DNA of 64,000 nt from Patescibacteria group bacterium (lineage in GTDB: Bacteria > Patescibacteriota > Patescibacteriia > JAZDEU01): contig JBHPIX010000002.1 of assembly GCA_042568285.1 (NCBI GenBank), positions 783 to 64,782 of the forward strand, written 5' to 3'. Positions 3-49,823 of this stretch are shown here, piece after piece (positions within the stretch are counted from its first letter, which is position 1; each line of letters starts with the position of its first letter). Both the position numbers and the translations under genes were made by a program. The notes under the pieces are model-generated. The model saw nothing but the letters and a program-made list of their open reading frames with translations. It searched no databases and had not been told where the DNA came from.

Positions 3-545
3 ATGAGAATTGGATTAGCGGCGCTAAAATTTATGTTGCTAAAAGTAAGCCCAAATAAAAATATAATGTTTAATCCTGAAGAAGCTATTTCATTTGAGGG
101 CGACACAGGCCCTTATGTTATGTATTCTTATGTTAGAATTAAGAGCATATTAAGGAAAGCTGGAAAAGACGGTTTCATAGTCCCGACAGAGGAGGGCTGT
201 GAAACTGAGATTCAACATTTGAAAAATGGAACAAGCGCAAAAATATCTGATGAAGAAATGAAATTAGCAAAACTAATCTACGAATTTCCTGACATATTAT
301 CTAAATCAGTCATAGGAATAATAACAAAAAACAAAGCTACTGAAAATTCAGTTAATCCAGCCTTTCTTGCGAATTATCTATTAGAATTATCTGGCGCGTT
401 TAATCATTTTTATCATATACACAAAGTAATAGATGCTGAGACAAAAGAATTAAAACATACGCGATTAGCATTGATAAATTCTGTCGCCATTGTTCTAAAA
501 AAAGGAATGGAAATTTTGGGAATTGATATGGTAGAGGAAATGTAG
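3..545 (+). CDS. argS: Arginyl-tRNA synthetase, C-terminal part (5' end lies outside the window)
   Basis: The ORF is open to the window edge. It has ArgRS-like C-terminal anticodon-binding sequence (GPYVMYSYVRIKSILRKA ... HTRLALINSVAIVLKKGMEILGI) and stops at TAG 543-545. Confidence 0.8.
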   Translation: MRIGLAALKFMLLKVSPNKNIMFNPEEAISFEGDTGPYVMYSYVRIKSILRKAGKDGFIVPTEEGCETEIQHLKNGTSAKISDEEMKLAKLIYEFPDILSKSVIGIITKNKATENSVNPAFLANYLLELSGAFNHFYHIHKVIDAETKELKHTRLALINSVAIVLKKGMEILGIDMVEEM

Positions 546-730
546 ACTTCGTCACGCAGATAAATCACGGATTTGCTACGCGGATCAGTCGCGGAACCTA
601 TTTGTCGGTGACTGTCACCAAACAAATTAATTTTTAAATAAAAAGTCTAAAGTTTATCTTAATCTATCTTTCTCTTTTTAAAATTAGACATTAAATATTT
701 TTTTAAAATTTGAAATTTAAAATTAAACTT

Positions 731-2497
731 ATGTTACGAACACACACTTGCGGTGAATTAAATAAAAAAAATAAAGGCGAAAAAGTTATCTTATGCGGAT
801 GGGTTAATAGCAGAAGGGACCATGGCGGACTTATTTTTATTGATTTGAGAGATAAATATGGGATAACTCAAATTAATTTTGATCCAAAAAATTCAAAAAA
901 AGCTTGGACGATTGCTGATACAACAAGGAATGAATTTGTAATAAAAGTGACTGGAAAAACAGTTATGCGACCTGAGAATATGGTTAATAAAAAACTTGCT
1001 ACTGGCGAAATTGAAATTGAAGCTAAAGAGATTGAAATTTTGAGTGAAGCGGAAACTCCTCCTTTTGAAGTTCATGAAGAGAAGGGCAACGAAGTTAAGG
1101 AAGAATTGAGAATGAAATACCGCTACATTGATTTGAGAAAACAAAACATCAAAGAAGCGATAATTAAGCGCCATCAATTTGTTAAACTTATTCGCGACTA
1201 TCTATCAGATAAAGAATTTTTGGAAATTGAAACTCCAATTCTGGGAAAAAGCACTCCTGAGGGAGCGCGCGATTTTTTGGTTCCCTCTCGGTTGCATGAA
1301 GGGGAATTTTATGCTTTGCCTCAGTCCCCGCAGCAATACAAACAATTTTTGATGATCGGTGGCATGGATAAATATTTTCAGATTGCCCGATGTTTTAGAG
1401 ATGAAGACACCCGTGGAGATAGACAAGCTGAGTTTACTCAGTTGGATATGGAAATGTCTTTCATTGAACGTGATGATATTTTGGATTTAACAGAAGACAT
1501 GATAACAAAGGCGATTAAAAAATTGTTTCCAGAAAAAAAGCTACTATCATCTCCGTGGCCACGACTTGATTATGAAGATGTAATGTTAAAATATGGGACA
1601 GATAAACCAGATTTGCGGTTTGGGATGAAAATTAAAGATGTTACAGATTTAGTTAATGATTGCGGATTCAAAGTATTCTCTGATGTTGCGTCTAATCATA
1701 ATGTAGTGAGAGCAATCTGCGCTACTGGCGCCGCTAAGTTCAGTCGCTCCCAAATTGATGACTTGACCGAGCTAGTTAAAAAATCTGGCGCTAAAGGGCT
1801 GGCGTATATACTATTGAAAGAAGATGGAACGTTGCAGTCTCCAATTGTGAAATTTCTCGGCGAAAATCTTGCGCAAAAAATAGTGAAACGAGTTGAAGCT
1901 AAAGCAGGTGATATAATATTTTTTGGAGCTGACACCAAAAAAGTTGTATGTGAAAGTTTGGCAAGTTTGAGGAATGAATTAGGAAAACTTCTTATTAAAA
2001 TTAACCCTGATTTAATCGCCATGGCATTTGTGATAAATTTCCCATTATTTGAAGAAGGGTTGCAAGACGGACATTATGCGCCAAATCATCATATGTTTAC
2101 TTCTCCAAGAGATGAGGATATTAAATTATTAGAAACAGATCCTGCAAAAGCGAAATCTTATCAGTATGACATGATAGGCAATGGGTACGAATTAGGAGGC
2201 GGAAGCATAAGAATTCATAATGCGAAAATTCAAGAAAAAATATTTAATTTAATAGGATTTGATAATGCAAGAAAAAAATTATTCAGCCATTTTTTGAGAG
2301 CGTTCAAATTCGGCGTTCCTCCTCACGGAGGAATAGCGCCAGGCATTGATAGAATGTTAATGGTGTTCATGAACAAAAATAGCATTCGCGATGTAATGGC
2401 ATTTCCTAAAACTGGAGATGGCAGAGATCTTGTAATGGAAGCTCCTAGTGAAGTTGAAGCAAAACAACTAAAAGAACTTGGAATTAAAATTGTATAA
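731..2497 (+). CDS. aspS: Aspartyl-tRNA synthetase (bacterial type)
   Basis: Class II motifs are present: FRDEDTRGDRQAEFTQLDMEMSF, GGGSIRIH and GIAPGIDRMLM. The ORF track starts at TTG 710; ATG 731 (MLRTHTCGEL) is the more likely start. Confidence 0.93.
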   Translation: MLRTHTCGELNKKNKGEKVILCGWVNSRRDHGGLIFIDLRDKYGITQINFDPKNSKKAWTIADTTRNEFVIKVTGKTVMRPENMVNKKLATGEIEIEAKEIEILSEAETPPFEVHEEKGNEVKEELRMKYRYIDLRKQNIKEAIIKRHQFVKLIRDYLSDKEFLEIETPILGKSTPEGARDFLVPSRLHEGEFYALPQSPQQYKQFLMIGGMDKYFQIARCFRDEDTRGDRQAEFTQLDMEMSFIERDDILDLTEDMITKAIKKLFPEKKLLSSPWPRLDYEDVMLKYGTDKPDLRFGMKIKDVTDLVNDCGFKVFSDVASNHNVVRAICATGAAKFSRSQIDDLTELVKKSGAKGLAYILLKEDGTLQSPIVKFLGENLAQKIVKRVEAKAGDIIFFGADTKKVVCESLASLRNELGKLLIKINPDLIAMAFVINFPLFEEGLQDGHYAPNHHMFTSPRDEDIKLLETDPAKAKSYQYDMIGNGYELGGGSIRIHNAKIQEKIFNLIGFDNARKKLFSHFLRAFKFGVPPHGGIAPGIDRMLMVFMNKNSIRDVMAFPKTGDGRDLVMEAPSEVEAKQLKELGIKIV

Positions 2498-2686: not shown

Positions 2687-5600
2687 ATGAAAAATAAATT
2701 TGTCCAGAACGAAGAAGATATATTAAAATTTTGGGAAAAAAATAAAACTTTTGAAAAATCAGTGCAAAAAAAAGCGCCAAAAGGCGATTATGTTTTTTAT
2801 GACGGGCCTCCTTTCGCGACAGGGCTTCCGCATTATGGACATATCGTTGCAAGTTTAATGAAAGATGTTGTTCCAAGGTATTGGACAATGAAAGGTTATA
2901 AAGTAGAAAGAAAATGGGGCTGGGACTGCCATGGATTGCCAGTTGAAAATATCGCTGAAAAAGAATTAAAAATAAAAAATAAAAAAGACATAGAAAAAAA
3001 TGGTGTCAAAAATTTCAATGAAGAATGCCGAGGTCTTGTGCTTAGATATGCTGATGAATGGAAAACAGTAATACAGAGAATTGGTAGATGGGTTGATATG
3101 GAAAATGATTATAAAACAATGGAAGCTGACTATATGGAATCAATCTGGTGGGTATTTAAATCATTATGGGATAAAAAATTGATCTATAAAGGTCATAATA
3201 GTATGCATATTTGTCCAAGATGCGGAACACCTCTATCCAATTTTGAGGTGAGTCAAAATTATCAGGACATAAAGGACTTATCTGTTATTGCTAAATTTGA
3301 ATTAGAAGACGAACCAGAAACATACATTTTAGCATGGACAACTACACCATGGACATTGCCGGGTAATGTTGCTTTAGCTATGGGCGCTAAAATTGATTAT
3401 GTAAAAATTAAAAATTTGAAGGATAATAAGCATTATATCTTAGCAAATGCAAATTTAGAACAATTATTCGCTACTGACGAATATAAGGTAGAACAAATAC
3501 TGCATGCGGAAGATTTGACAGGCAAAAAATATAAGCCTCTGTTTGATTATTTTATAAAAACAGATTTAGAAAATAAAGAAAATTTATATACAATTCAAAC
3601 TGCTAATTTTGTAATGGTTGGAGAAGGGACAGGAATAGTTCATATTGCTCCAGCATTTGGAGAAGATGATATGAATATAGGCAAAGAAAAAAAATTGCCT
3701 ATGATTCAACATGTTTCTCCAAATGGTAAATTTACGGATGATATAAAAGAATGGGCAAATGAAACTGTAAAACCAAAAGAAGATACACAAGCGACAGATA
3801 AAAAAATAGTTGATTATTTGGATAAAAAAGGATTAATTTTTAAATCAGAAGAATTTGAACATAGCTATCCATTATGCTGGCGATGCGATACGCCTCTTTT
3901 AAATTATGCCACTGACTCCTGGTTTGTAAAAGTTGCAGAAATAAAAGATAAAATGATAGCTAATAATGAAAAAATGAATTGGATGCCTAAACATATCAAA
4001 TATGGTCGATTTGGCAAATGGCTTGAGAATGCTAGAGATTGGGCTATTTCCCGCGAAAGATATTGGGGCGCTCCATTGCCAGTTTGGGAATGCGATAAAT
4101 GCGAAGAGACAGAAGTTATTGGAGATATAAAAACTTTGGAAGATAAAGCTCTTAAAAATGGAAAAGTTTATTTTATAAGACATGGAGAAGCTGACAATAA
4201 TGTAAATCAAACTTTAAATTCTAAAACAGATGATGACATTAACATAACAGAAAAAGGCATTGAAGAAATTAAAAAATCCGCGAATGAATTGAAAGATAAA
4301 AAAATAGATATTATAATTTCTTCCGACATTAATAGATCTGTTCAAAGCGCTGAAATTTTATCAAAAGAATTAGGATTAGAAATACAGTATGATAAAAGAT
4401 TACGGGAAGTAAATATAGGAGATTGGAATGGAGATTTAATGGAAGATCATAAAGATTTTATAAATAAATGGCGAGCTGGCGAATTAGTAACTTACCCTAA
4501 TGGAGAAAATTGGCTTGACGCAAAAAAAAGAATCAAATTATTCTATAATGATTTATTAAGGGACTATGGAAATAAAAATATTTTATTAGTTAGTCATGGC
4601 GATTTAAGCGTCGCTTTTGAAAGTATTTTAAAATCTAAAAATTTCCTGCAAAGCATTAAAGAAAAATTTAGTTCTTGCAAAAAACTTTCAGAAAATAACC
4701 ATAAAAATGCGGAAATAAAAATTTATGATCATAAAATTATAGATTTGCATAAACATAATATAGATTCTCTAAAATGGAAATGCGATAAATGCGATGGCGA
4801 AATGAAAAGAATTGATTCTGTTGTTGATTGCTGGTTTGAGTCAGGTTCTATGCCATACGCGCAAAATCATTATCCTTATGAAAATAAAGAAAAATTTGAA
4901 CAAAATTTTCCAGCGCAGTTTATAGCGGAAGGAATTGATCAGACAAGAGGATGGTTTTATACTCTGCTTGTTCTATCCAGCGCGCTATTTGACAAGCCGC
5001 CTGCGCTAAATGTAATTGTGAATGGAATTGTTTTAGCTGAAGATGGGCAAAAGATGGCAAAATCAAAAAAGAATTATCCTGATCCGATGAAAATTATTGA
5101 TGAATATGGAGTTGATCCATTAAGGCATTATTTATTATCATCTCCTGTTATGTCTGCCGAAGGATTAAATTTTTCAGAAAAAGGAGTTAAAGAATCTCTG
5201 CAAAAAACAGTAATGCTTATTAGTAATATCTTATCATTCTATAAAATGTATGAAGAAAAAACATCAGTAAATGAAAAAATTGATAGTTCTAATGTTCTTG
5301 ATAAATGGATAATAGCTATGCTTAATAAGCTAAATGCTACTGTTGAAAAATCTATGGATAATTATAATCTTCAAGAAGCATCGCGACCGATTGAAAAATT
5401 CATAAACGACTTTTCAACATGGTATTTGCGCCGTTCTAGAGATAGGTTTAAAGGTGATGATGAGAAAGATAAAGAATGCGCATTGCAAACAACCAAATAT
5501 GTATTAATTGAGTTGTCAAAAATAATAGCTCCTTTTATGCCGTTTATCTCTGAACAGGTTTGGCAGGAGACCACTGGTTATAATTTTAAGAATCCGGATA

Positions 5601-6124
5601 AAAGCGTGCATTTGGAGGAGTGGGCAAAGGCAGGTGAGATTGATAAAAATATTTTAGAAAAAATGGCATTAGTCCGCCAAATCGCGGAACAAGGATTATC
5701 AGCTCGCGCAGAGGCTGGTATAAAAGTTAGACAGCCACTTCAAGCATATTGCACTTCCCTAACAGATTCTCTTGAACCTGCATATATATCAATGCTTCAA
5801 GAAGAATTAAATGTTTTAGAAATAAAATTTGGCGAGGATAAATTATCTCTCAAATTAACTCCCGAATTAATTAGAGAGGGAATGGCGAGAGAATTAATTC
5901 GTCAGATAAATAACTTGCGAAAAAATCAAGGGTTAACTATAAACGACCGCGTAAAAATATATTATCAAACAAATTCTGAGGACATAAAAAATACACTTTC
6001 AAAATTAGGAGAACAAATTAAAAAAGATACTTTAGCGGATGAACTTATTTTTGGCGATGTTTTAGATGGGAAAGAGGTTAAAATTAATGGTGAGGTTGTT
6101 AGGATTGGGATAGAGAGGATATAA
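2687..6124 (+). CDS. ileS: Isoleucyl-tRNA synthetase with an inserted histidine-phosphatase-like domain
   Basis: It has a HIGH-type motif (PHYGHIVAS), a KMSKS-type motif (KMAKSKKN), WAISRERYWGAPLPVW and VVDCWFESGSMPYAQ. It is a single uninterrupted 1145-codon ORF. Confidence 0.93.
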   Translation: MKNKFVQNEEDILKFWEKNKTFEKSVQKKAPKGDYVFYDGPPFATGLPHYGHIVASLMKDVVPRYWTMKGYKVERKWGWDCHGLPVENIAEKELKIKNKKDIEKNGVKNFNEECRGLVLRYADEWKTVIQRIGRWVDMENDYKTMEADYMESIWWVFKSLWDKKLIYKGHNSMHICPRCGTPLSNFEVSQNYQDIKDLSVIAKFELEDEPETYILAWTTTPWTLPGNVALAMGAKIDYVKIKNLKDNKHYILANANLEQLFATDEYKVEQILHAEDLTGKKYKPLFDYFIKTDLENKENLYTIQTANFVMVGEGTGIVHIAPAFGEDDMNIGKEKKLPMIQHVSPNGKFTDDIKEWANETVKPKEDTQATDKKIVDYLDKKGLIFKSEEFEHSYPLCWRCDTPLLNYATDSWFVKVAEIKDKMIANNEKMNWMPKHIKYGRFGKWLENARDWAISRERYWGAPLPVWECDKCEETEVIGDIKTLEDKALKNGKVYFIRHGEADNNVNQTLNSKTDDDINITEKGIEEIKKSANELKDKKIDIIISSDINRSVQSAEILSKELGLEIQYDKRLREVNIGDWNGDLMEDHKDFINKWRAGELVTYPNGENWLDAKKRIKLFYNDLLRDYGNKNILLVSHGDLSVAFESILKSKNFLQSIKEKFSSCKKLSENNHKNAEIKIYDHKIIDLHKHNIDSLKWKCDKCDGEMKRIDSVVDCWFESGSMPYAQNHYPYENKEKFEQNFPAQFIAEGIDQTRGWFYTLLVLSSALFDKPPALNVIVNGIVLAEDGQKMAKSKKNYPDPMKIIDEYGVDPLRHYLLSSPVMSAEGLNFSEKGVKESLQKTVMLISNILSFYKMYEEKTSVNEKIDSSNVLDKWIIAMLNKLNATVEKSMDNYNLQEASRPIEKFINDFSTWYLRRSRDRFKGDDEKDKECALQTTKYVLIELSKIIAPFMPFISEQVWQETTGYNFKNPDKSVHLEEWAKAGEIDKNILEKMALVRQIAEQGLSARAEAGIKVRQPLQAYCTSLTDSLEPAYISMLQEELNVLEIKFGEDKLSLKLTPELIREGMARELIRQINNLRKNQGLTINDRVKIYYQTNSEDIKNTLSKLGEQIKKDTLADELIFGDVLDGKEVKINGEVVRIGIERI
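4105..4779 (+). other. Histidine phosphatase (PGAM/RHG superfamily)-like domain nested inside IleRS
   Basis: The segment reads VYFIRHGEADNN (RHG at 4178-4186) ... SSDINRSVQSAE ... LREVNIGDWNG ... LLVSHGD (SHG at 4592-4600). It lies between the two CDKC knuckles at 4091-4102 and 4781-4792. Confidence 0.7.
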
Positions 6125-6411
6125 ATAATAATTTTAAATGACAAATTTTAAATTTTAAAAAAATATCAAATTTTAAATGACTAAATGTTAAAATGCTATT
6201 ACTTTTTTAAAAATATCTTTATTCAAAACTATAATATTATTATTGTTTTATTGACTAACATATTACGAAATATGCCAAGTTTTAAAAATTTGTCATTTGT
6301 TATTTAAAATTGTTTTAAAATTTGAAATTTAAAATTTAAAATTATAAACTTTATTAAAATCACATACGCAGATTATTATAATAGGTAACCATATATCGCG
6401 TATGAGCCAAT

Positions 6412-7332
6412 TTACTCCCGATAATATTTTGCCGCGTCTTCTGGCGAGACTGGATTGATAACTAAGCCAGACCCGATTTCCACACCAGCCCAAACACTGC
6501 CACGGGGTGTTACTTTCATATACAAATGCTGATCCTCGTCGTTAATCACTTGATGGAAATAATAATTATAAGGTAAGCCCAAAGCGCTTATTTTTTTTAA
6601 GACTTTTTTTAAAATTTTAGCAAAAGATCCTCTTTCTTTATCTGTTAAACATGTAATATTATCTATATGCCTTATTGGCATAATCCAAATTTCATAATTA
6701 TGTATTGACGCGTAAGGAGTAAAGGCAACTACATTTTTATCTTTATAAACTAATCTTGGGCCTTTAGATTCTTTTTCTATAACATCGCAATAGACGCATG
6801 TTCCATGTCTTAACTTATATTCCTGCACCCTCTGACTCTTATCAATTAAATGCGGTGGCAAAAAAGAAGTCGCGAAAATTTGCGAATGGGAATGTATAAT
6901 AGAGGCTCCTGCTTTTCCTCCATTATTTTTAAAAATTAAAATATATTCTATTTCCTTGTCTTTTGAAATTGACTTTGTTCTTAAAGCGTAAACTTTTATC
7001 AATTCAGAAATATGATTTTCTGGCAAATCATCCAATTCCTTAAAATGATCTGGGGTTTCAATAATAACTTCCTGTGTTCCATAAGCTTTTGGATTATCCA
7101 AGCTTACAGCTGGAAAAATATTTTTTATTACCTTTACTCTCCAATCCTTTTTTGTTCCGACAGTCAATAAATCTTTAACTTTATTTACCTGCGCAGGACA
7201 AAAAACACAACTTTCACCTCGTGATGTATCTCCAATTTGAGGTTTTTCAATTTGATGAGGTCGCTTACCCCTAACAGGAGCTATAATAACATATTTTTCT
7301 TGGATATAATCTTTTCTTATTTCAGGTTTCAT
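6412..7332 (-). CDS. GalT/HIT-superfamily nucleotidyltransferase (galactose-1-phosphate uridylyltransferase or ADP-glucose phosphorylase-like)
   Basis: It has an N-terminal CVFCP zinc motif and the HSHSQ (HxHxQ) active-site motif. It is adjacent to glgA on the same strand. Confidence 0.7.
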   Translation of the reverse strand: MKPEIRKDYIQEKYVIIAPVRGKRPHQIEKPQIGDTSRGESCVFCPAQVNKVKDLLTVGTKKDWRVKVIKNIFPAVSLDNPKAYGTQEVIIETPDHFKELDDLPENHISELIKVYALRTKSISKDKEIEYILIFKNNGGKAGASIIHSHSQIFATSFLPPHLIDKSQRVQEYKLRHGTCVYCDVIEKESKGPRLVYKDKNVVAFTPYASIHNYEIWIMPIRHIDNITCLTDKERGSFAKILKKVLKKISALGLPYNYYFHQVINDEDQHLYMKVTPRGSVWAGVEIGSGLVINPVSPEDAAKYYRE

Positions 7333-7339
7333 ATATATT

Positions 7340-9010
7340 TTATTTAATTAGCTTTTTATAAATTTTTAAATATTCTTTAGCAGAACGCCCCCATGAAGAA
7401 TCCCTCTTCATTCCATTTAACATTATTTTTTCCCACATTTTTTTATTCTGATAAACCTCTAAAGCATAATCTATTATTTTTAGCATAGCATTGGTAAAAT
7501 ATCTCTCAAAAACAAATCCATTCGCAGACTTTATAGACTTTACGACTTTATGGACTTTCAACTCGTTCACCGTATCAGCAAGCCCGCCTGTCTTTCTAAC
7601 AATTGGGACTGTCCCGTATCTCATTGCAGTAAGTTGACCAAGTCCGCACGGTTCAAATTTTGATGGCATTAAAAATATATCTGATCCAGCATAAATTCGC
7701 TGGGCTATTTTTAAATCAAATTTAATAAGCGGTTTAAAATTATATGGATACTTTTTTCCTAACTCTTTTAGTTTTGTTTCATATTCAGGATTTCCTGTTC
7801 CTAAAAGAATAAAAAACAAATTCGGATATTTCTTAAACATTTGAGGAATTGCGTCAATCACTAAATCAATACCCTTTTGAGACGCGAGGCGGGATATTAG
7901 TCCAATTAGCGGCTGCGACACGGTGGCTCCAAAATATTCCTTCAGTAAATCCTCTTTATTCTTCCTCTTTCCATCCAAATCTTTCACTGAATAATTATAT
8001 TTTATAAAGGAATCCGTCTCTGGATTAAACTTATCAACATCTATACCATTTATTATACCATAAAGATCATTTTTTCTCATTTTTAAAATATTGTCTAACC
8101 CTTCTCCACATTGTTTTGTTAAAATTTCTTTAGCGTAAGTAGGACTTACTGTTGTTATAACTTCTGATGATAAAATCCCCTGCGCCATTTTATTTATATC
8201 ACCATCACGAGAATCTGCCTCCAAATGTTTACTGCTATTTAATAAAATGTTCAAAGATTTTAATTTTTTCGTGGAAAATTGTCCCTGAAACTGCAAATTA
8301 TGAATAGTTAAAACTGTTTTTATATTTAATCCTTCATTTTTTAATAAAGCTGATATAAAGGCTGTATGATTATCATTACAATGAATTATGTCAGGTCTAA
8401 CGAACGCAAATCCGCCAGCATTGCCTCTCTTAAATACAGCTTGACTGGAATCAACACGAAAATTATCAGCGATTATTTCCGCTACTGCTTTTGAAAAAAA
8501 CAAAAATTTAACTGGCGGATGATAAATATCTTTACCCCCAAAATATTTTTTATTATCTATGAAATAGATCGGGACTGAATTACAATCATGGGCTTGATTT
8601 CCTTGTGTCATCCCGCGCTTGACGCGGGATCTACTTCTGGATTCCGTATCAAGCACGGAATGACATAAAGAACTATTTTTACTATTTTCATCCGTCCTTA
8701 CAGAAGCTACAATGTCAGCCTTATAAACATTAATCTTTTCATTCTTCCCATCAAATTCAACTGTAAAATTTTCTACAACATTCTCTAATAAATATTTTTT
8801 TTCATTACATTCAATTGCCGTTAATTTTTTGTTTTTAAATATTTTTTTTATATTGCCATACAAAGGCATCATAACACTAATATCAACACCCAGATTCGCC
8901 AAAGCTGGTGGCAAAGCTCCTGCAACATCAGCAAGCCCGCCCACTTTAGCAAATGGAGCCACTTCAGCTGATATGAAAAAAACTTTTGGGTTTTTTGTCT
9001 TTTTTATCAT
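7340..9010 (-). CDS. glgA: Glycogen/starch synthase (GT5) carrying an in-frame repeat insertion
   Basis: The N-terminus has the KxGGL motif (AEVAPFAKVGGLADVAGALP). C-terminal GT-B motifs are present (PSKFEPCGLGQLTAMRYGTVPIV, TGGLADTV). Confidence 0.85.
   Translation of the reverse strand: MIKKTKNPKVFFISAEVAPFAKVGGLADVAGALPPALANLGVDISVMMPLYGNIKKIFKNKKLTAIECNEKKYLLENVVENFTVEFDGKNEKINVYKADIVASVRTDENSKNSSLCHSVLDTESRSRSRVKRGMTQGNQAHDCNSVPIYFIDNKKYFGGKDIYHPPVKFLFFSKAVAEIIADNFRVDSSQAVFKRGNAGGFAFVRPDIIHCNDNHTAFISALLKNEGLNIKTVLTIHNLQFQGQFSTKKLKSLNILLNSSKHLEADSRDGDINKMAQGILSSEVITTVSPTYAKEILTKQCGEGLDNILKMRKNDLYGIINGIDVDKFNPETDSFIKYNYSVKDLDGKRKNKEDLLKEYFGATVSQPLIGLISRLASQKGIDLVIDAIPQMFKKYPNLFFILLGTGNPEYETKLKELGKKYPYNFKPLIKFDLKIAQRIYAGSDIFLMPSKFEPCGLGQLTAMRYGTVPIVRKTGGLADTVNELKVHKVVKSIKSANGFVFERYFTNAMLKIIDYALEVYQNKKMWEKIMLNGMKRDSSWGRSAKEYLKIYKKLIK
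8606..8665. repeat. 60-bp double-hairpin palindromic element inside the glgA ORF, in frame
   Basis: The sequence is tgtcatcccgcgcttgacgcgggatc-tacttctg-gattccgtatcaagcacggaatgaca. It has the same architecture and length as the intergenic copy at 13567-13626 and encodes CHSVLDTESRSRSRVKRGMT in GlgA. Confidence 0.85.
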
Positions 9011-28849: not shown

Positions 28850-28913
28850 ATCCGCGTTAAATCCGCGTAACAATCCGCGACTAATCCGCGTAACAATCCG
28901 CGACTAATCCGCG
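28850..28913. repeat. Six ATCCGCG heptamers at alternating 11/12-bp spacing (23-bp unit)
   Basis: The heptamers start at 28850, 28861, 28873, 28884, 28896 and 28907. They lie between the rmuC stop and the femX-like start. Confidence 0.9.
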
Positions 28914-30915: not shown

Positions 30916-31605
30916 ATGGAACAAGTAAAATTAGTATTGATATTGTCTGGCAGAGGGTCTGACGCGGCATCTATATTAGCTACGCATCAAGAAGGAAAAA
31001 TTCCAGAGGTAGACGAGATAATTTTAATTTCAACTGTTGAAGGAGCGGGAGAATGCGTCAAAAAATTTATATCTATTAAGATGAAAGTAATTGATTATGA
31101 AGCAACTACATACGATAATTCTTTATATTTTGACAACCAAGTAAAACTTTTTTTACAAGAAAATCATATTGAACTTGTTTTCGCTGTAGGGTGCATACAC
31201 CTTCTTCCTATTCTCACAGGAATAGATGGATATAATATCCATCCTGCTGACATTGAAGAACATGGAGGCAATACAATGTATGGATTGGCAGTTCATCAAC
31301 ATGCGCTAAATAGCATTATGGATCAAATAAAACGAGGGAGAGGAAATGTTAATACGCAATTCTTTACAAAAATCGTAATCCATAAAATTGGAAAAGAATA
31401 TGATAAGGGAAATATTTTTAAAATAATCAATATCCCTATCCCAACAGAAATTGTATTAGCTTTACACAAAAAGATTGCAACAATAGAAGAAGCCGCAAAA
31501 AATCTTCAAAAACATGTCATTCAATTTGAACATATTGAATTGCCGTCTGCGGTAAGATCAGCGGCAAGAATAATTTTAGAAAGAAAGGAAGGGAAAGGGG
31601 TATGA
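30916..31605 (+). CDS. Divergent formyltransferase-fold protein (PurN-like), translationally coupled to purL
   Basis: It has an LILSGRGSDA N-terminal pattern and a later NIHPAD region, resembling the GAR-transformylase ILISG.GSN / NIHPSLLP motifs but divergent. ATGA overlaps the purL start. Confidence 0.45.
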   Translation: MEQVKLVLILSGRGSDAASILATHQEGKIPEVDEIILISTVEGAGECVKKFISIKMKVIDYEATTYDNSLYFDNQVKLFLQENHIELVFAVGCIHLLPILTGIDGYNIHPADIEEHGGNTMYGLAVHQHALNSIMDQIKRGRGNVNTQFFTKIVIHKIGKEYDKGNIFKIINIPIPTEIVLALHKKIATIEEAAKNLQKHVIQFEHIELPSAVRSAARIILERKEGKGV

Positions 31606-34600
31606 ACGGATATTTTTATAAATTTTTCAAAAGACCATTTTTGTCAAAAGAAAAAACTGAAGATTTGCTTAAACAAATTCAAAAAATAAAACCGCTAATT
31701 GAAAAAATTGAAACTGAAACAGTCTTTTATGTTCAAACTTCACGCAAACTTAATACAGACGAGCTTGAAAAATTAAAATGGTTTTTAATGGACGAGCATT
31801 ATCCTCAAAATTTTAAAGATTTATCTTTTTTGAGCGCCAGCAATGCTAACTTGTTTAATGTATCTCCGCTATCGCATTTTGAAACTCCTGAATCCACTAA
31901 CAGAACGGCAATATGTCAATTATGCGGGATTCCAGTTATAAAATTAGAGGTTGGAAAAAGATATTGGATTATGAAGAAATCTAGTTTTATAGGGGCTCAA
32001 ACAAGAAAACTAATTGCTAATCTGTTGCATGACAAAATGCTTGAATATGAGCATGAACAAATTCTGAAATCTTTTGGCATTGAAAAAAAACCTGAACCTC
32101 TTAAATATATTCCTGTTTTACAACAAGGAATACAATCTTTAAAACAAGCAAATGAAAAATATGGCACTGGAATGGATGAGCAGGATATAAACTATTATTA
32201 TTATCTTTTCACTGAACTATATAAACGAAATCCTACTGACGTTGAATTTTGCGGACTTGGAAACGCTAATTCAAACCACTCGCGACATTTTGATTTTAAC
32301 GCGAAAATTATTATTGACGGAAATGAAATGCCTTTTACTTTAATGGAAATTCTAAAAAGCACATTGAAAGATATAAATAAAAATAGTATTATTGCTTTCC
32401 ACGACAATCTATCAGCTATTCATGGTTTTCCTATTGATATACTTATTCCTCAAAAACCTGGTTTTTCATCATCAATGAGAATGGCTAATATTCTTTTGCA
32501 TTTAACGCTCACATGTGAAACTCATAATCATCCTTGCTTAATAGCGGCTTATCCCGGAGCGGCAACAGGTGGCGGAGGAGGCAGAAGAGACGGAGCAGCT
32601 GGAGGAAAAGGCAGTATGGTTGTATGCGCGTCAGCTGGTTTTTTATGCGGAAATCTTCTGCTACCAAATTATATTATGCCTTGGGAAGATGAATCTTTTC
32701 TTTATGATCATACTTTAGAATCTCCTTTAAGTTTTTTAATAAAAGCCACTAATGGATGTTATAACGACGGCAATGAATTTGGAGAGCCTGTAATTAGCGG
32801 CATCACTGATAGTTTTGGAATGTTAGTTGGAAAGGAAAGATGGGAATATATAAAGCCGGTTATGTTCACTGGAAGGTTCGGCGCCATTGATGACAAGCAT
32901 ACAAAAAAAGAGGAACCACAAAAAGGATGGTTTCTTATACATCTTGGAGGATTTGCGTATAGGGTAGGAGTATGCGGTGGATCAGCTTCCAGTATGATTA
33001 AAGGCGAAAATAAAGATGACCTTGATTTTAACTCTGTTCAGAGAGCCAATGGAGAAATGGCAAAAAAGGCTGATAATGTAATAAGGATGTGTGTTCAAAT
33101 GGGAGATGATAATCCTATAGCAAGTATACATGATCAGGGTGCTTGTGGAAAATTTAATTGCTTGCTAGAGCTTATGGGAAATCAAGGCGGTGAGATTAAG
33201 CTTCGCCAAATTCCTATTGGAGATAATACACTATCTCCTCTTGAAATTTTGGTAGCTGAATATCAAGAGAATTTTGGAATTCTTATTAAGCCTGGAAGAT
33301 GGGAAGAGTTTAAGAGAATTTGTGATCGTGAAAGATGTCCTTGCGCTATTTTGGGAACGATAACAGGAGACGGAAAAGCGATTGTTATTGATGAAAAAAA
33401 TGAAACTGTTCCAGTTGATCTTGAATTAAAACATGTATTTGCTGATTATCCGCAAAAAATTATTCATGACGAACATAGAAAACTTGATTTAAAACCTCTT
33501 GAAATTCCTGCTGACTTAACTTTCCGTAAAGCATTGGATTTAATTTTTCGGCATTTGGGAGTAGCGTCAAAAGCATGGGCTGTTCATAAAGTTGACCGAT
33601 CTGTAACAGGAAAAGTAAATCAACAGCAATGTGTCGGCCCGCTTCAGATTCCGCTTTCTAATTATTCTGCTATACAATTTAGTCCGTTTTCTAATGTTGG
33701 TGAAGCGAATTCACACGCTGTTCGTCCGAGAATTGGATTTATTTCCGCTGGGGCAATGGTAAGAATGACATTAGCTGAAGCAATGATTAAACTAATGCTT
33801 ATAAAGGTAACCGACAGAAAGGACATAAAAATTTCTGGTAATTGGATGCTCGCGGCAAAACTTCCCGGAGGAATGGCTTGGTTATATGACGCTACTGTTG
33901 CTTTAAGAGACGCTCTTGAAGCGACTGGAATTGACGAAGATGGCGGAAAAGATTCTTCTTCAATGGCAGCGAAAACTCCATCTGGCGACGGTTCTACTGA
34001 AATAGTAAAATCCCCAAGCACTTTTGTACTGTCAACTTATGTTGGTTGTCCTGATCTTACTAAAAAATTAACTCCTGACATTAAGGAGCATGGAAACAGC
34101 AGGCTCATATTTATTGATATTGCAAAAGGAAAAATGAGATTGGGAGGAAGCGTATTTGCTCAATGTTTAAATCAAATTGGACTAAAATGCCCTGATATTG
34201 ATGATAATAACTTCGACACTATAAATAAAACATTTGATCTTTTTCAAAAACTGCTTGACGAAAATCTAATTCTTAGCGCGCACAAAAAAAGCAAAGGAGG
34301 ATTGATAACTACTTTATGCGAAATGGCGTTTGGAGGGAACTGCGGGATTGAAATTGAATTAAAGCATCAGACAGCTTCGGTATTTGAAATGTTCCTTAAT
34401 GAAGAAGCTGGGCTAATTATTGAATGTCTTATTGGAGATGAAAGTGACATTTATCAGTATTTTTATGAGGTAGGATTAGGAGATATAATTTATACCCTAG
34501 GGCATACGACCACTGAAAAGAAAATTACCGTTATTTATAATGGTGAAAATGAAATCACAGAGTCTACAGACGACTTGCGAGCGCTTTGGAGCGAAACTTC

Positions 34601-37139: not shown

Positions 37140-37350
37140 CAAAACTACTATCCCTGAAAATATAATCTATCTTGTCTACATCAAAAGGGCCATTTATGAT
37201 ATGGGCAAGAAAAAGCTTTGATGGCTCTTTAGTCTTTCCTATAATATACTTAGCTACTGTATCCAAATCTATTGATATAGGATAATTTGACTCAATGTTT
37301 TTATGGATTAATCCAACACAAGACTTTAATTCTCTGGGAAGTGGATTGTC
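37140..37350 (-). pseudogene. HD-domain (dGTPase/SAMHD1-like dNTP triphosphohydrolase) fragment abutting the right IS end
   Basis: The minus-strand frame reads ...LIHKNIESNYPISIDLDTVAKYIIGKTKEPSKLFLAHIINGPFDVDKIDYIFRDSSF and then enters the IS IR. It has no start codon and overlaps the 5' end of the LamG ORF. Confidence 0.45.
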
Positions 37351-40300
37351 TTACGAGCAGATATTTATAAGTAAGTCTCCTACAAATGGCGCAGAAGAAG
37401 GAAGTTTTATTTTTAAAATTGATACAGATACAGATAAATTGCAATTTGGCGCGTTTGATAATGCAGGCGATGTTGTTGTTAATATTTTTGGTACGAATAC
37501 ATCTTGGAATGCTAATCAATGGTATCAAATAGCAATTACATTTAATGGGGCAGGTTATGAAGTTTATTTAGACGGTCAGTCGGATGGGTACACTACAGAT
37601 TCAGATTCGTTTGGTTCAACAGATCAAACATATTACATTGGAAGAGCTGGAAATGATGTAAATCCTCAATATTTCGACGGCCTCATAGACTCTGTCAGAA
37701 TATACAACCGAGCCCTAACCGCGAATGAAATAAGGGCGCATTATGATTTGGGAAGCCATATACAAGATGGGGATATGGAGGATGCTTCTGGCAGTCGTGT
37801 TGTTGGAGAATGGAATCAGTCAAGCGAGGGAGCGGAACTTTTAACAAATGGAGGATTTGAAACAGCTGGCGGTGGCGGAGCAGATGTTTGGGGAACATGG
37901 GCGGAAAACGCTGGGGATGGCGGGTTGGCGAATGAGACAAGTATAAAATACGCTGGTTCGGATGCGGCATCAACAACTGCTGGAAGTTTAACAGACACTT
38001 TTGTCAAACAAGCCGCGGCAGTTACCACTGGCAATATGTATAAGGCGACATTTTATACAAGAGGCGATGGAACATATTCAGGACAATACGCGATTTGGGA
38101 TGCCACAAATGATGCTGTTATAACAGCCACAACAACAGCTGGAATTACTGGAACAACATACACTAAATTTACAAAATATTTCACAGCGCCATCCAGTTGC
38201 GCGTCAGTTGATCTGCATTTATACGCGCCATCAACTGAAGGCGGAACCGCGTATTTTGACGATGCGTCTGTCATAGCCGCCCAAGTGGCGTCACCCGAAT
38301 CTGGAATTGTTCGCGCGGAAGATGGGCTTGTCGGGGGGTGGAATTTTAGTGGAACATCCGGGACATCCGCGGATGGGGATACTTTGACAGATGTGTCTGG
38401 AAACAGCAATGATGGAACAGGCGTTGATGGAGCTAATAATACTGGTTTAGGATTTGTGAGTGGTCGGTTTGGGACTGCGATTGAGTTTGATGGGGTGGAT
38501 GATTATGTTGATTGTGGAACGAATAGTAGTTTATTACCAAATATATTTACAGCCATAGCATGGGTTAAATATGATGGAAGTCAGACAGATGCACCTTTGA
38601 TTACTTGGGCTACAACTCAACCCGGGATTTATATCGAGTTCTTGAACGTCGGTCCACTTATCTATATTGGTGTTGAAAATTTTAGATACTTTGAAAAAGA
38701 TAGTCCAGTTGATGTATTTAATAATAAATGGCATCAGCTTGCTTTTGTAGTAACAGGTAATGCCCAAAACGATATTGATAATTCAAAATTATATGTTGAT
38801 GATAGAGAACAAGATATTAGGACTACTAACAATACTGGTACGCCCGACACAAAAACTTTTCTTAGAATTGGAGTTGGGCATTCGAATTATTTCAACGGCG
38901 CCATAGACTCCGTTCGCGTATATAACCGCGCCCTATCTGCAGGTGAAATAGTGGCGCATTATTCGTCCACACGAGGGAAGTTTGGGGAGTATTCCGCGAA
39001 GATAAAATTAGTAGATGATAATAGCAACAGTTATTTAGATGAAATATTAACTGATGATCAAGATTATCTGCTGTCATATTGGTATAAAGCAGGAGAAGAC
39101 AATGCTAATCCGATAAATTTTACAGCGTCTGGCACTGCCATAATGCTTCCTGAACAAAACATAATGGCTTCGTCCACAACCGGACTTGTGGGAGCTTGGA
39201 ATTTTGAGGAAGCGGCGACACCATCGGTAGATGTATCTGGAAATGGACATTCATTAACATGGAACGGAACAGCGGCAAAATCAACATCTGGAAAATTCGC
39301 AAACGCGATAGACTTAGATGGCGATAGCGATTATTTAAATAAAACAGATTCAGATAGTTTAGATTTAGCATCAGCCGCAACAATATCAGCATGGGTATAT
39401 TTAGATGATCTTGCTGCCCAACACTGCATTGCGGACAAAGGAACAAATTACGGAGTTCATATAGATACTTCAGGATATTTAACATGGGATAATGGAACAG
39501 AATATAAAGACACAACAGCAATAGCGGCAACAACATGGACGCATGCAGTAGTAGTTAATGATGGAACAACAGCAAGTTATTACATCAATGGAACTTACTC
39601 AAGCAATGACACAGCAGGATTCGCGGCTATAAACGCAAGCGATTTAAGAATAGGATATGATGGAACAAATTATTACCAAGGATTGATAGATAATTTGAGA
39701 ATATATAATAAAGCCCTAACTGCCTCTGAAGTGTATGAAAGCTATAAAGCAGGAGATTGGAGACAATATGAACTGTCATTTGAAGCAGACGCTGGAGTAG
39801 CAGGAGTCCATGCTTTTAGCTTTATTCAAGATGGAACAACAGCCGGCAACAGCATCGTTTATGTGGATAACTTTAGATTGGATAAAAATTTAGCGGATAA
39901 AGGTTCGTTTGAAGCTTTTTCCGGCGGAGACCCTGACATTCCAACTGGATGGGTAAATGAAAGTTTGTCAGCAGGAGAAGGGGACGAAGGCGATGAGGAA
40001 ATACATTCTGGAAGCAAAAGTTTTGAACTCATTGACGCCGACGATGGAGAAGGAATTATGCAGGGGATTACTGTGACATCTGGCAATTGGTACACATTTG
40101 GAATGTGGGCAAAAAATAATAATCAAGATGTGGAAGCAATAATAGGAGGAACAGCTCTCGCAAGCACAACCATTGATTTGACGACCGCGGGAAATATTTG
40201 GACAAAATTTAATAAAACATTTATCGCAAGCAGTACAGATTTGGCGATTTTAATTTCTGCCGGAGCCGCAACCCAAGACGGATATTTTGACGATGTAAGT

Positions 40301-42757
40301 CTGGTAGAGCTGGACTCCTACTCTGGCGCGGCAACTGCCACAACAACAACACCATCGTCTGCCGCAAACTCATACAGCTATGGCAGATGGGGAGAATCTT
40401 CTGGCTCGTTGATGATGGATGGAGGGGATACTTTAACATACCCGACAGCGAATAATATGTATGCTGATCAAGGATCATTCAGCTTTTGGATAAAGCCGTC
40501 TATGGACTATGACGACTATGCGGAAAATAAATACCTTTGGGATGTTTCAGACGGAACAAATAACGCCATAAGATTATATTACAATTATTCTGACTATAAA
40601 TTCTATTTTGAAATATACGACGGAGCGTCTTGGACATCTGTGCAAGCAGCTTCTTCTGCTCAATCTTTTACAGAAGACACGTGGATACATTTGGCAGGCA
40701 CATGGAACGACAGAAAAAATTTGGTTTATTTATATGTGAACGGCGCGAATGACGGATCATCGGATTGGGGTTGGTACGCGCAAACATTGCCGACTAATAT
40801 GTATTTTGGATCTGATTACAGCGGAACAAATAACGCTGATATGTATATTGACGATTTGCGGGTTTATGAATACGCGCTTTCAGCGGAAGATATTAGCCGA
40901 ATGTACGGCTCTCTTCCAGATCCGTCTGCTGACAATTTAAGAGTATCAATCCCATTCACATCAGGAGGAATTGGCATAGACGGAACTGGATTATTTGATC
41001 TCACTGGAACGTTTACTGCTGGGTGGGGATACCGAACTGGAAAAGTGTCTGGAGAAAACGCCATGCTCTTCGCTGGTTCCGACGATCTGCAGTTTTCACG
41101 TGGAGACCAGCTGGACGGCAACATTTATGAATATATTAGCCCGTATCAGGGCACGATTAAAACTTGGGTTAGATCTGGATTTGATGGATCAGATTCTACA
41201 ACAAATTACATTTTCCAAAATGGAAGCACAAGCTACATCAAACTGTACTCCAGTTCAGGAACTCTATATTTTGACATAGCAACAACAACAGGCGCTGTTA
41301 TTAGCAGAGTATCAAATGACATTTCTGGCTGGACAGCGGGAGAGTGGCATCATATTGCCGCAGTTTGGAGCAATGAAAATACTGTTTCAACAAGTTCCAC
41401 TCAATATTTAATGGAACTATATGTGGACACTGCCATCGCTGGAAATACTTATACTAATGCCACATTTAACACAAATTTTTGGGCATCGTTCGCCCCCGGA
41501 ACATCTTTTATTGGAGAAGATTCAGATTCAGCAAATCAGTGGGATGGATTGATTGGAGGATTTGTTTTGGAAAATCGGGCTTGGAGCGGGAATGAAGTGT
41601 CTGACGACTATAATTCTGGAACAGGCACTGCGGTTGCGGTTAATCAATCAACCATTATGTCCCTGCCATTTGATTCAGCTGATCTTGACGGATTGGTAAC
41701 TTGGGCAACCTCTACACAAAATGTGGTGGCTGATTGGAATATGGAAGATGGGGATGCGGGGGAATGGACAGATACGTTAAACGCTTCCAGCTCCGCAGAA
41801 TCAGGAATCGTAACAGCAGAGGATGGGTTGGTGGGGGGATGGAATTTTGAGGATGATTTAACAGATGATAGCGGGAATAGCAAGACAGGCGTTTCTCATA
41901 CAGATCCAGACTGCCCGACAGGCTATGTATTTGTTCCCGGTAATTCAACTTATAGCACAAGCGATTTCTGTGTAATGCAATATGAAGCGAAGTATGATTC
42001 TAATGACGACGGGACAGGGGATGACGCGCCAACAGAATGTAAATATAACACAGATTATGATACTTGGGACTGGGGGAAAGATGTAGCGACAGAATGCGGG
42101 TATGATGTAAATGAAACAGCAAGAGTAGTATCAACAGCGGCAGGATCTCCAATAGCTGGCATTACGCATACAGAAGCGTTAAGCGCCTGTCCCTCTGGGG
42201 ATCATATAATAACAAATGACGAATGGATGACAATCGCAAGAGACGCGGAACAAGTGAATGCTAACTGGACAGGCGGAGAAGTCGGTTCGGGGTGTTTGTT
42301 TGCAGGGAATAATGGAGACGCGACTTGCGGGTATAATGGCGATGATCCAGAAAAAGGAACTGGAAGAAACGCGAGAGCTAAATTTATTCTTTCCAGCGGA
42401 GAAGAAGTTTATGATATATCAGGAAATGTTTGGGAACATGTAAAAGTTGATGCAAGTGATACTTTAATTGATGACACTCCTACTGACGGCGGGGCGGCTG
42501 AATGGCGTTGGATTGAATTTACAGCTATTACAGGCTATGGCGATCTTAGTTATGATCAAATTAGACCTTCTAATTCTTCTTGGAATGCTGATCAAGGGAT
42601 GGGGCGATTATATACCTATAATGGCGTGAGTAGCAACCGCGTGTTTCTTCGTGGTGGCATGTGGTCCGATGATACTAACGCCGGCGCGTTCACGTTGAGC
42701 TTGAATTGGACGGCGAGCACTCAGCATTATACTGTTGGTGTGCGGTGTGCCAGGTAG
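37295..42757 (+). CDS. DGR target protein: multi-LamG (concanavalin-A-like) repeat protein with CBM-like modules and a C-terminal C-type-lectin/FGE-sulfatase-fold variable domain; apparently 5'-truncated
   Basis: The LamG signature recurs (F(D/N)G.IDSVRIYNRAL(T/S)A.EI..HY) along with NGGFE...YFDD modules. The C-terminus reads CPTGYVFVPG...DISGNVWEHV...VFLRGGMWSDDTNAGAFTLSLNWTASTQHYTVGVRCAR. There is no signal peptide or RBS, and the ORF begins inside a LamG domain (MFLWINPTQ). Confidence 0.85.
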   Translation: MFLWINPTQDFNSLGSGLSYEQIFISKSPTNGAEEGSFIFKIDTDTDKLQFGAFDNAGDVVVNIFGTNTSWNANQWYQIAITFNGAGYEVYLDGQSDGYTTDSDSFGSTDQTYYIGRAGNDVNPQYFDGLIDSVRIYNRALTANEIRAHYDLGSHIQDGDMEDASGSRVVGEWNQSSEGAELLTNGGFETAGGGGADVWGTWAENAGDGGLANETSIKYAGSDAASTTAGSLTDTFVKQAAAVTTGNMYKATFYTRGDGTYSGQYAIWDATNDAVITATTTAGITGTTYTKFTKYFTAPSSCASVDLHLYAPSTEGGTAYFDDASVIAAQVASPESGIVRAEDGLVGGWNFSGTSGTSADGDTLTDVSGNSNDGTGVDGANNTGLGFVSGRFGTAIEFDGVDDYVDCGTNSSLLPNIFTAIAWVKYDGSQTDAPLITWATTQPGIYIEFLNVGPLIYIGVENFRYFEKDSPVDVFNNKWHQLAFVVTGNAQNDIDNSKLYVDDREQDIRTTNNTGTPDTKTFLRIGVGHSNYFNGAIDSVRVYNRALSAGEIVAHYSSTRGKFGEYSAKIKLVDDNSNSYLDEILTDDQDYLLSYWYKAGEDNANPINFTASGTAIMLPEQNIMASSTTGLVGAWNFEEAATPSVDVSGNGHSLTWNGTAAKSTSGKFANAIDLDGDSDYLNKTDSDSLDLASAATISAWVYLDDLAAQHCIADKGTNYGVHIDTSGYLTWDNGTEYKDTTAIAATTWTHAVVVNDGTTASYYINGTYSSNDTAGFAAINASDLRIGYDGTNYYQGLIDNLRIYNKALTASEVYESYKAGDWRQYELSFEADAGVAGVHAFSFIQDGTTAGNSIVYVDNFRLDKNLADKGSFEAFSGGDPDIPTGWVNESLSAGEGDEGDEEIHSGSKSFELIDADDGEGIMQGITVTSGNWYTFGMWAKNNNQDVEAIIGGTALASTTIDLTTAGNIWTKFNKTFIASSTDLAILISAGAATQDGYFDDVSLVELDSYSGAATATTTTPSSAANSYSYGRWGESSGSLMMDGGDTLTYPTANNMYADQGSFSFWIKPSMDYDDYAENKYLWDVSDGTNNAIRLYYNYSDYKFYFEIYDGASWTSVQAASSAQSFTEDTWIHLAGTWNDRKNLVYLYVNGANDGSSDWGWYAQTLPTNMYFGSDYSGTNNADMYIDDLRVYEYALSAEDISRMYGSLPDPSADNLRVSIPFTSGGIGIDGTGLFDLTGTFTAGWGYRTGKVSGENAMLFAGSDDLQFSRGDQLDGNIYEYISPYQGTIKTWVRSGFDGSDSTTNYIFQNGSTSYIKLYSSSGTLYFDIATTTGAVISRVSNDISGWTAGEWHHIAAVWSNENTVSTSSTQYLMELYVDTAIAGNTYTNATFNTNFWASFAPGTSFIGEDSDSANQWDGLIGGFVLENRAWSGNEVSDDYNSGTGTAVAVNQSTIMSLPFDSADLDGLVTWATSTQNVVADWNMEDGDAGEWTDTLNASSSAESGIVTAEDGLVGGWNFEDDLTDDSGNSKTGVSHTDPDCPTGYVFVPGNSTYSTSDFCVMQYEAKYDSNDDGTGDDAPTECKYNTDYDTWDWGKDVATECGYDVNETARVVSTAAGSPIAGITHTEALSACPSGDHIITNDEWMTIARDAEQVNANWTGGEVGSGCLFAGNNGDATCGYNGDDPEKGTGRNARAKFILSSGEEVYDISGNVWEHVKVDASDTLIDDTPTDGGAAEWRWIEFTAITGYGDLSYDQIRPSNSSWNADQGMGRLYTYNGVSSNRVFLRGGMWSDDTNAGAFTLSLNWTASTQHYTVGVRCAR
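42635..42756 (+). other. DGR variable region (VR)
   Basis: It is 122 nt and 109/122 identical to 43199-43320, with 11 mismatches opposite TR adenines. It covers the last 40 codons of the target ORF. Confidence 0.88.
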
Positions 42758-43198: not shown

Positions 43199-43320
43199 AA
43201 CCGCGTGTTTCTTCGTGGTGGCAAATGGAACAATGAAACTAACGCCGGCGCGTTCACGTTGAACTTGAATTGGAATGCGAGCAATCAGAATTATAATGTT
43301 GGTTTGCGGTGTGCCAGGTA
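43199..43320 (+). ncRNA. DGR template repeat (TR)
   Basis: It is a non-coding copy of the VR, rich in AAY codons when read in the VR frame (NRVFLRGGKWNNETNAGAFTLNLNWNASNQNYNVGLRCAR). It has 32 adenines, 11 of them substituted in the VR. Confidence 0.88.
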
Positions 43321-43483
43321 TTTCTCAATTTGGTCTGAGTGAAATGCTTACGGGCATAAGTCCGAGCCAGAAAACTACTGATTTTATTCCATCCTTGAAA
43401 AAGGAAAATACTTGGCTTTTACCTCAAGGCGGTGAGAGTATTTTCTTTAGAAAAGAAATTTCCGTCTTGAGCATTAAGCCATT

Positions 43484-49815: not shown

Positions 49816-49823
49816 CTTAGGTG

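Follow-up and report, generated by a model that had tools for sequence, protein, structure and literature searches.

The question raised by this locus is what a phosphatase domain is doing inside an aminoacyl-tRNA synthetase. The window (i.e., the whole stretch of 64,000 nucleotides that was analysed, positions 783 to 64,782 of contig JBHPIX010000002.1 of a Patescibacteria group bacterium) contains a gene, ileS, whose product is an isoleucyl-tRNA synthetase (IleRS), an enzyme essential for protein synthesis; a branch-1 histidine phosphatase domain, complete and of the small PhoE/CobC/PspA/GpgP type, is spliced into a surface loop at the tip of its zinc-knuckle CP3 subdomain. The nested architecture is an old, inherited and selected feature of many Patescibacteria. 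It is not unique to the window and is already present in public databases, where it has been annotated only automatically.

The synthetase and the nested phosphatase domain

The ileS open reading frame (ORF) is complete, codes for 1145 amino acids (aa) and occupies positions 2687..6124 of the forward strand, as do the features of this gene given below; it continues across the insert without interruption. Pfam, NCBIfam and an AlphaFold2 model describe the product as a type-2 IleRS with a nested phosphatase. TIGR00392, the isoleucine-tRNA ligase equivalog, matches it with 866.6 bits, where 621.4 are required; the insert breaks this match into two stretches, at aa ~499 and 700. Pfam reports tRNA-synt_1, Anticodon_1 and DUF5915 besides His_Phos_1, and the NCBIfam profile search points to a resemblance to type-2, MupA-like IleRS. 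Identity with the mupirocin-resistance enzymes MupA and MupB was rejected (741 and 739 bits, the exception-model cut-off being 1900); so was identity with ileS_w_GNAT, NF040702 (297 bits against 1999), since the window protein has no GNAT domain by Pfam. A protein 100% identical to it (P0267) is found at NCBI as 'class I tRNA ligase family protein [Patescibacteria group bacterium]'.

The HIGH signature of the synthetic site reads HYGH (aa49-52, 2831..2842) and the KMSKS signature reads KMAKS (aa789-793, 5051..5065); the CP1 editing motifs WTTTPWTLPGN and GTGIVHIAPAFGEDD are found in the translation. Since all of these are intact, we infer that the enzyme still charges tRNA-Ile. Other IleRS motifs flank the insert, namely WAISRERYWGAPLPVW (aa452-467), DLHKHNID (aa686-693) and VVDCWFESGSMPYAQ (aa712-726). 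The AlphaFold2 model of the whole protein, built on a 115-sequence alignment, has a mean predicted local distance difference test score (pLDDT) of 92.6 and a predicted template modelling score (pTM) of 0.85; over the insert the block values are 83-98, all but one at least 91. Its top PDB matches are IleRS2 of Priestia megaterium (8C8V) and the yeast IleRS-tRNA complex; the template modelling (TM) score normalised to the target is 0.82 to 8C8V and 8WND_A, and 0.92 to 1ILE. Like the type-2 (eukaryote-like) bacterial enzymes of P. megaterium (8C8V) and T. thermophilus (1ILE), the protein consists of a Rossmann fold with HIGH and KMSKS, the CP1 editing domain, CP2, CP3 with two Cys pairs, the anticodon-binding domain and a C-terminal DUF5915; unlike them, it has about 195 extra residues in CP3, which make up a second enzyme domain, while the solved IleRS have only a short linker there. 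An earlier note, made from the DNA letters alone, had proposed an IleRS host, an open frame throughout and normal IleRS motifs on both sides of the insert, and on these points it proves correct; each motif that it quoted is in its place.

The nested domain (approximately aa487-684, 4145..4738) was delimited using alignment A1, PF00300, a model of the domain and Foldseek. PF00300 (His_Phos_1) covers aa494-640 with E=1.8e-33 and 116.3 bits in the full protein, and gives 120.4 bits (E=9.7e-35) for the insert alone; the cut-off is 21.7. The full RHG histidine-phosphatase signature recognised in the earlier note is thus placed in the superfamily by profile, with every catalytic residue in its place. 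These are Arg498 and His499 of the RHG motif (FIRHGEADNN, aa496-505; 4178..4183), His499 being the predicted phospho-accepting nucleophile by motif and PDB alignment; the second catalytic Arg, Arg550 (4334..4336), within SSDINRSVQSAE (aa545-556); Glu574 (4406..4408), the predicted proton donor, in LREVNIGDWNG (aa572-582); and the second catalytic His, His637 (4595..4597), in the VSHGD part of LLVSHGD (aa633-639). All five align with their counterparts in PhoE. Asn505 (4199..4201), a phosphate-pocket residue, is recognised by its conservation in nested copies, which also supports the assignment of Arg550 and His637.

The closest solved sequence is PhoE/YhfR of G. stearothermophilus (E=2.5e-13), followed by 9MMH (a histidine phosphatase annotated as phosphoglycerate mutase), glucosyl-3-phosphoglycerate phosphatase, PspA and CobC. 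The insert segment LREVNIGDWNG aligns with LREIHLGDWEG of PhoE, and both contain the E-x3-G-x-W-x-G motif; the mutase-type signature is ERHYG. The insert is classed as a small member of the phosphatase type, and not as a mutase, because its acid-catalyst motif is PhoE-like and the specific equivalog cut-offs are failed. Cofactor-dependent phosphoglycerate mutase was rejected (NF038349, 92.5 against 225; TIGR01258, 33.7 against 81.7; EVNIGDWNG in place of ERHYG), as were alpha-ribazole phosphatase CobC (TIGR03162, 90.5 against 162.9) and phosphoserine phosphatase PspA (NF045917, 75 against 350).

Modelled alone, the domain reaches a pLDDT of 93.1 and a pTM of 0.90, and Foldseek relates it to 9MMH, 4QIH, 1H2E and 4IJ6 (TM 0.7-0.78, E ~1e-13); we infer that the domain folds independently and provides a second active site, tethered to IleRS. 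With PhoE/YhfR (1EBB/1H2E), the Rv2419c glucosyl-3-phosphoglycerate phosphatase (4PZ9), the riboflavin-pathway HFP (9MMH), CobC and PspA it shares the fold (TM 0.7-0.78), a size of about 190-210 aa, the R-H...R...E...H set and the E-x3-G-x-W-x-G motif; it differs from these small branch-1 phosphatases in sequence (24-26% identity in structural alignment, equivalog models failed) and in being nested, while they are free-standing. A phmmer comparison of the insert with all ORFs of at least 80 aa gave no second phosphatase gene in the window.

The CP3 subdomain hosting the insert spans aa462-711 (4070..4819) according to alignment A1 and the CP3 definition of PMC7191050; that study also reports that the CP3 of T. 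thermophilus IleRS carries a zinc motif and that CP3 topology differs in three ways among solved IleRS. CP3 begins directly after the ARDWxxSRxRYWG segment of the CP2-CP3 linker ARDWAISRERYWG (aa449-461, 4031..4069); the homologous segment of yeast IleRS lines the tRNA-CCA/reveromycin pocket (PMC7955072). In insert-free IleRS, VxGSxxELE and DLHKHxVD are joined by about 5 linker residues, which the phosphatase replaces; the linkers on its two sides are each at most about 5 residues (A1).

The insert is enclosed by two zinc-knuckle Cys pairs, both of which read CDKC (aa469-472, 4091..4102, and aa699-702, 4781..4792). They are separated by 226 residues, against about 34 in insert-free relatives (P0024, alignment A1); the earlier note was right that the pairs lie unusually far apart, with 226 residues to be read for its 230 codons. 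Of 155 nested homologues, 123 have retained the two pairs and 22 have lost the two. The direct repeat reported there does bracket the insert and encode both knuckles; it is 16 nucleotides (nt) long rather than 15 (AATGCGATAAATGCGA, exact copies at 4089..4104 and 4779..4794), has no third or reverse-complement copy in the window, and no mechanistic meaning can be attached to it. The codon usage of ileS is strongly biased (TGC 13/14, GAT 64/82, AAA 121/132), and with this bias the chance of identical DNA for the same CDKC peptide is about 0.4. A relative (L082) whose protein is 82% identical has CDKC at both knuckles, the first spelled TGT GAT AAG TGT, so that the repeat is not conserved. Since the same peptide is encoded twice under strong codon bias and the repeat is absent in this relative, it is a coincidence of codon usage and not a scar of recombination or assembly.

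Distribution, free-standing forms and selection

The earlier note had suggested looking for the same insertion in related genomes, and it is widespread there. Using one genome per GTDB species, tblastn with the query segment gave at least 264 species loci with a relative of the segment; in all of the best 80, which were checked, a single copy of the domain lies within a stop-free IleRS frame. The carriers among these 80 belong to the Zambryski-, Taylor-, Nomura-, Kaiser-, Adler-, Wildermuth- and Nealsonbacteria and the Paceibacteria, with one complete chromosome of Gracilibacteria. An exhaustive HMMER search of 1.84 billion protein cluster representatives produced 146 new top hits, each standing for a cluster at 50% identity, and 116 of these clusters are nested in IleRS; the nested form also accounts for 77 of the 120 best full-length homologues. 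The 82%-identical protein of L082 comes from a JGI contig that is syntenic, its genes being arranged as argS-aspS-ileS-...-galT-like-...-glycogen synthase. On another contig, of 61 kb (L001), the phosphatase-bearing ileS (4745-8243) is divided among three consecutive ORFs of 431, 526 and 205 aa, probably through frameshift errors or as a pseudogene.

Several relatives deviate from the single copy. Two, three or four phosphatase domains in tandem occupy the same CP3 site in P0121, P0147, P0136, P0153, P0160, P0193, P0146 and P0167; all complete copies keep the catalytic Arg, His, Arg, Glu and His, and the sole changes are Asn to Ala in copy 3 of P0121 and Glu to Gln at the GE position in copy 1 of P0160. 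Other relatives (P0281, P0304, P0386, P0382 and P0201) carry, in addition to the phosphatase, a NUDIX or an Acetyltransf_3-type GNAT domain in the CP1 region, or a C-terminal rhodanese; P0382 and P0201 have both GNAT and phosphatase in one IleRS, the GNAT being in the CP1 region and not in CP3. A free rhodanese gene was seen in locus L167 (6953-7315), 4 nt after an insert-free ileS and followed by thiI.

The nested domain and a free-standing phosphatase gene of about 190 aa are alternative states of the genome; in other Patescibacteria the free-standing gene usually lies between ileS and argS, the gene for arginyl-tRNA synthetase (ArgRS). For the nearest free-standing homologue (P0094, 189 aa) the distance is 2 nt from argS upstream and 4 nt from a type-2 ileS downstream; two more independent cases (P0398, P0471) have the order argS-phosphatase-ileS-x-recO, and recO is also downstream of the nested ileS in L001. 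Where genes have been called, the gaps in the argS-phosphatase-ileS series are 2-7 nt. A metagenome scan seeded with free-standing homologues (alignment A5) gave 49 free-standing and 31 nested loci. An insert-free IleRS frame starts from -200 to +60 nt downstream in 39 of the 45 free-standing loci that have at least 400 nt of downstream sequence, and ArgRS is directly upstream in 30 of 32 with enough upstream sequence. Nested loci have argS directly upstream in 18/24 and 23/64 cases (two locus sets). No locus among 160 (80 metagenomic and 80 genomic) contains a nested and a free-standing copy together. One free-standing phosphatase in JGI (P0419, 194 aa) is labelled 'isoleucyl-tRNA synthetase' at source, a name presumably transferred from nested homologues.

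The linkage has exceptions. No phosphatase gene neighbours four insert-free IleRS that share about 60% identity with that of the window, and one free-standing homologue (P0442) is next to secA, away from any aminoacyl-tRNA synthetase gene. The nested, adjacent and absent states are interleaved in neighbour-joining trees without bootstraps, whether these are built from the IleRS core or from the phosphatase domain. At least one transition between states has taken place, and probably several; either direction, from adjacent to nested or the reverse, fits the trees. Another kind of fusion was seen once: in P0248 (689 aa) the C-terminal Met of ArgRS runs into the phosphatase (…APEHM-FNNSYFFLRHGE…), i.e., it is the upstream neighbour that is fused. 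A search for a second ArgRS-phosphatase fusion returned free-standing phosphatases and ArgRS fragments only; this single unverified case may reflect a lost stop codon or a sequencing error.

Conservation was counted over 221 nested copies that are about 30-40% identical overall, the denominators being the copies with a residue at the column. The Arg of the RHG motif is present in 215/215 and its His in 214/215, the second Arg (Arg550 column) in 220/220 and the second His (His637 column) in 218/218; the Glu574 column has E or D in 220/221, and the Asn505 column has N in 201/215. Against L082, the ratio of nonsynonymous to synonymous substitution rates (dN/dS) is 0.10 for the insert, 0.086 for the N-terminal half of IleRS and 0.18 for the C-terminal half. 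The distances of insert and core over 72 full-length carriers are correlated (Mantel r=0.56, reached by 0/999 permutations), which indicates that the insert is co-inherited with the IleRS core, evolving faster than the core. To judge by these sequence comparisons, the nested domain appears to be maintained as an active domain.

Neighbouring genes and other features of the window

Upstream of ileS, the window begins with the 3' end of argS (3..545, +), a synteny partner whose product, the ArgRS C-terminus, is 63% identical to aa449-664 of the ArgRS of L082. It is followed by aspS (710..2497, +), coding for AspRS, which is an ORF situated between argS and ileS in the window lineage, in a gene order shared with L082. 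Convergent with ileS is a gene similar to nucleotidyl-transferases of the GalT/HIT superfamily (6412-7332, -) with weak HIT and DcpS_C hits; a glycogen/starch synthase gene (7340-9010, -) adjoins it, and the pair follows ileS in L082 as well.

The only tRNA of the window is a 73-nt tRNA-Ser with anticodon UGA (49823-49895, -) predicted by ARAGORN, with a modest Rfam tRNA score of 48.3 bits; its variable loop is only 5 nt long, a long arm is missing, and position 37 is a C, which is unusual for a tRNA-Ser of bacteria. Several runs of exact 15-mers are found again at a distance that is always 564 nt (42635-42757 and 43199-43321), at and past the 3' end of an ORF of 1820 aa (37295..42757), and this suggests a duplicated segment. 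A perfect 23-nt tandem repeat of 2.3 copies is intergenic (28860-28913). Besides the 1820-aa ORF, the window has very large ORFs at 50083-58368 (2761 aa) and 31602-35540 (1312 aa).

Possible function and significance

Aminoacyl-tRNA synthetases are among the best-studied enzymes. To our knowledge, no synthetase that has a histidine phosphatase nested in it has been described, and catalytic domains other than those for editing are rare additions to bacterial synthetases. A full-text literature search, with subscription journals mostly outside its coverage, returned no description of a phosphatase-bearing synthetase, in agreement with what the earlier note had stated; none of the NCBIfam models returned for the window protein covers this form. 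Some parallels do exist. NF040702 likewise catalogues an IleRS with an extra enzymatic domain, which there is an N-acetyltransferase and is lacking in the window protein; the existence of this exception model shows that enzymes nested within IleRS have been recognised before. The Rv2228c-type bifunctional RNase H/acid phosphatase (PRK07238) also joins a branch-1 phosphatase to a nucleic-acid enzyme, and the insert scores 81.5 bits with this model; however, the cut-off of 326 is missed, the partner enzyme is different, and the Rv2228c type is an end-to-end fusion and not a nested one. A precedent for a nested second active site is the CP1 editing domain of IleRS, ValRS and LeuRS, a hydrolytic domain within the Rossmann fold; CP1 is universal and acts on mischarged tRNA, while the phosphatase is lineage-restricted and has an unrelated fold. 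A synthetase with an accessory domain from a known superfamily is of a known kind; what would surprise a specialist is the breadth of the distribution, the tandem amplification and the alternation of the operon form with the nested form.

We believe it likely that the domain is a PhoE-like phosphomonoesterase with a small-molecule substrate, tethered to IleRS, and that the nesting serves co-expression and co-localisation. A nucleophilic His and phospho-histidine chemistry are established for the histidine phosphatase superfamily. By analogy, His499 would attack the phosphomonoester and become phosphorylated, with the phosphate held by Arg498, Asn505, Arg550 and His637; Glu574 would protonate the leaving group, and water would then free the phosphate. 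The substrate would most likely be a small phosphomonoester, e.g., a nucleotide or a sugar or acid phosphate. Through nesting, how much phosphatase there is and where it is located would be tied to a synthetase already co-transcribed with it. The domain would be an accessory one, not needed for aminoacylation itself; that it is accessory rather than essential is suggested by the four insert-free relatives without a phosphatase neighbour and by the scattering of the states on the IleRS tree. Several considerations weigh against this proposal. The activity is predicted, and the small-molecule substrate is an extrapolation from characterised relatives at 24-26% identity; conserved adjacency with repeated physical linkage is a classic mark of direct functional partnership; and nesting in CP3, as opposed to end-to-end fusion, together with two to four intact copies, is not accounted for by co-expression alone.

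The second of these points would favour an alternative that we regard as rather improbable: the phosphatase would be a dedicated partner of the synthetase, acting on something that IleRS (perhaps also ArgRS) handles. One candidate would be a tRNA end with a 2'/3'-phosphate or cyclic phosphate, to be healed ahead of charging; others would be a nucleotide that aminoacylation leaves as a by-product, or a mimic of the aminoacyl-adenylate, phosphorylated or of the phosphoramidate kind, to be detoxified in cis. Such a partnership would fit the conserved argS-phosphatase-ileS order with its gaps of 2-7 nt, the occurrence of the adjacent and nested forms in no locus together among those examined, the ArgRS fusion in P0248, and the addition of NUDIX or RimL/MccE-type GNAT (Acetyltransf_3) domains to the same protein in relatives. 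It may be added that the HD domain of the E. coli CCA-adding enzyme has 2'/3'-phosphatase activity, and that MccE and RimL acetylate aminoacyl-adenylate mimics. The position of the insert agrees with it as well, since CP3 begins right behind the linker that in yeast IleRS lines the tRNA CCA pocket (PMC7955072). However, many close IleRS relatives have no linked phosphatase, P0442 stands away from any synthetase gene, no further ArgRS fusion was found in the search for one, two to four tandem copies speak against one precisely placed site, and small metabolites are the substrates of all the closest characterised relatives. A non-catalytic role, i.e., that of a structural spacer or of a phospho-ligand sensor regulating IleRS, is in our opinion very unlikely. 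The site does belong to a variable, permissive subdomain with three topologies in solved IleRS (PMC7191050), and the domain is dispensable in relatives; nevertheless, the catalytic residues, including the proton-donor Glu, are near-invariant in 221 copies of low overall identity, the complete tandem copies keep them (bar single changes at the non-catalytic Asn and GE columns), and the dN/dS of 0.10 speaks in the same direction. An origin as an assembly chimera, or as a mobile insertion of recent date between the 16-nt repeats, has, for all the exactness of the repeat on both sides, a negligible probability. The same in-frame architecture recurs in 80/80 independent GTDB assemblies, in many metagenome contigs and in the syntenic L082, where the repeat, itself explained by codon bias, is missing; insert and host co-diverge. 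Chimerism between the repeats, which the earlier note had allowed for, is thereby excluded, and so is a recent mobile insertion.

The proposal of a tethered small-molecule phosphatase is retained as the likely one. The finding matters for several reasons. The architecture is conserved in ultra-small, symbiotic bacteria that form a large radiation and are understood mostly by inference from their genomes, and its nested, adjacent and absent states provide a natural contrast and a direct experimental handle. It also concerns annotation, in that the profile match of IleRS is broken in two by the insert, and the name given by NCBI to the identical protein does not go beyond the class I tRNA ligase family. 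There is a small chance that class I synthetases of Patescibacteria have in the phosphatase a working partner that has so far escaped notice, with a tRNA 3' end, a nucleotide product or an aminoacyl-adenylate-like antimetabolite as its target. The free-standing and nested forms would then be two ways of keeping a phosphatase at the synthetase, and the NUDIX, GNAT and rhodanese domains of relatives would be further items of one accessory toolkit on IleRS; action on tRNA ends or adenylate-like toxins would amount to a new kind of quality control or self-protection on a synthetase. If the domain is a housekeeping phosphatase only, it would illustrate clearly how an enzyme comes to be placed within another in reduced genomes.

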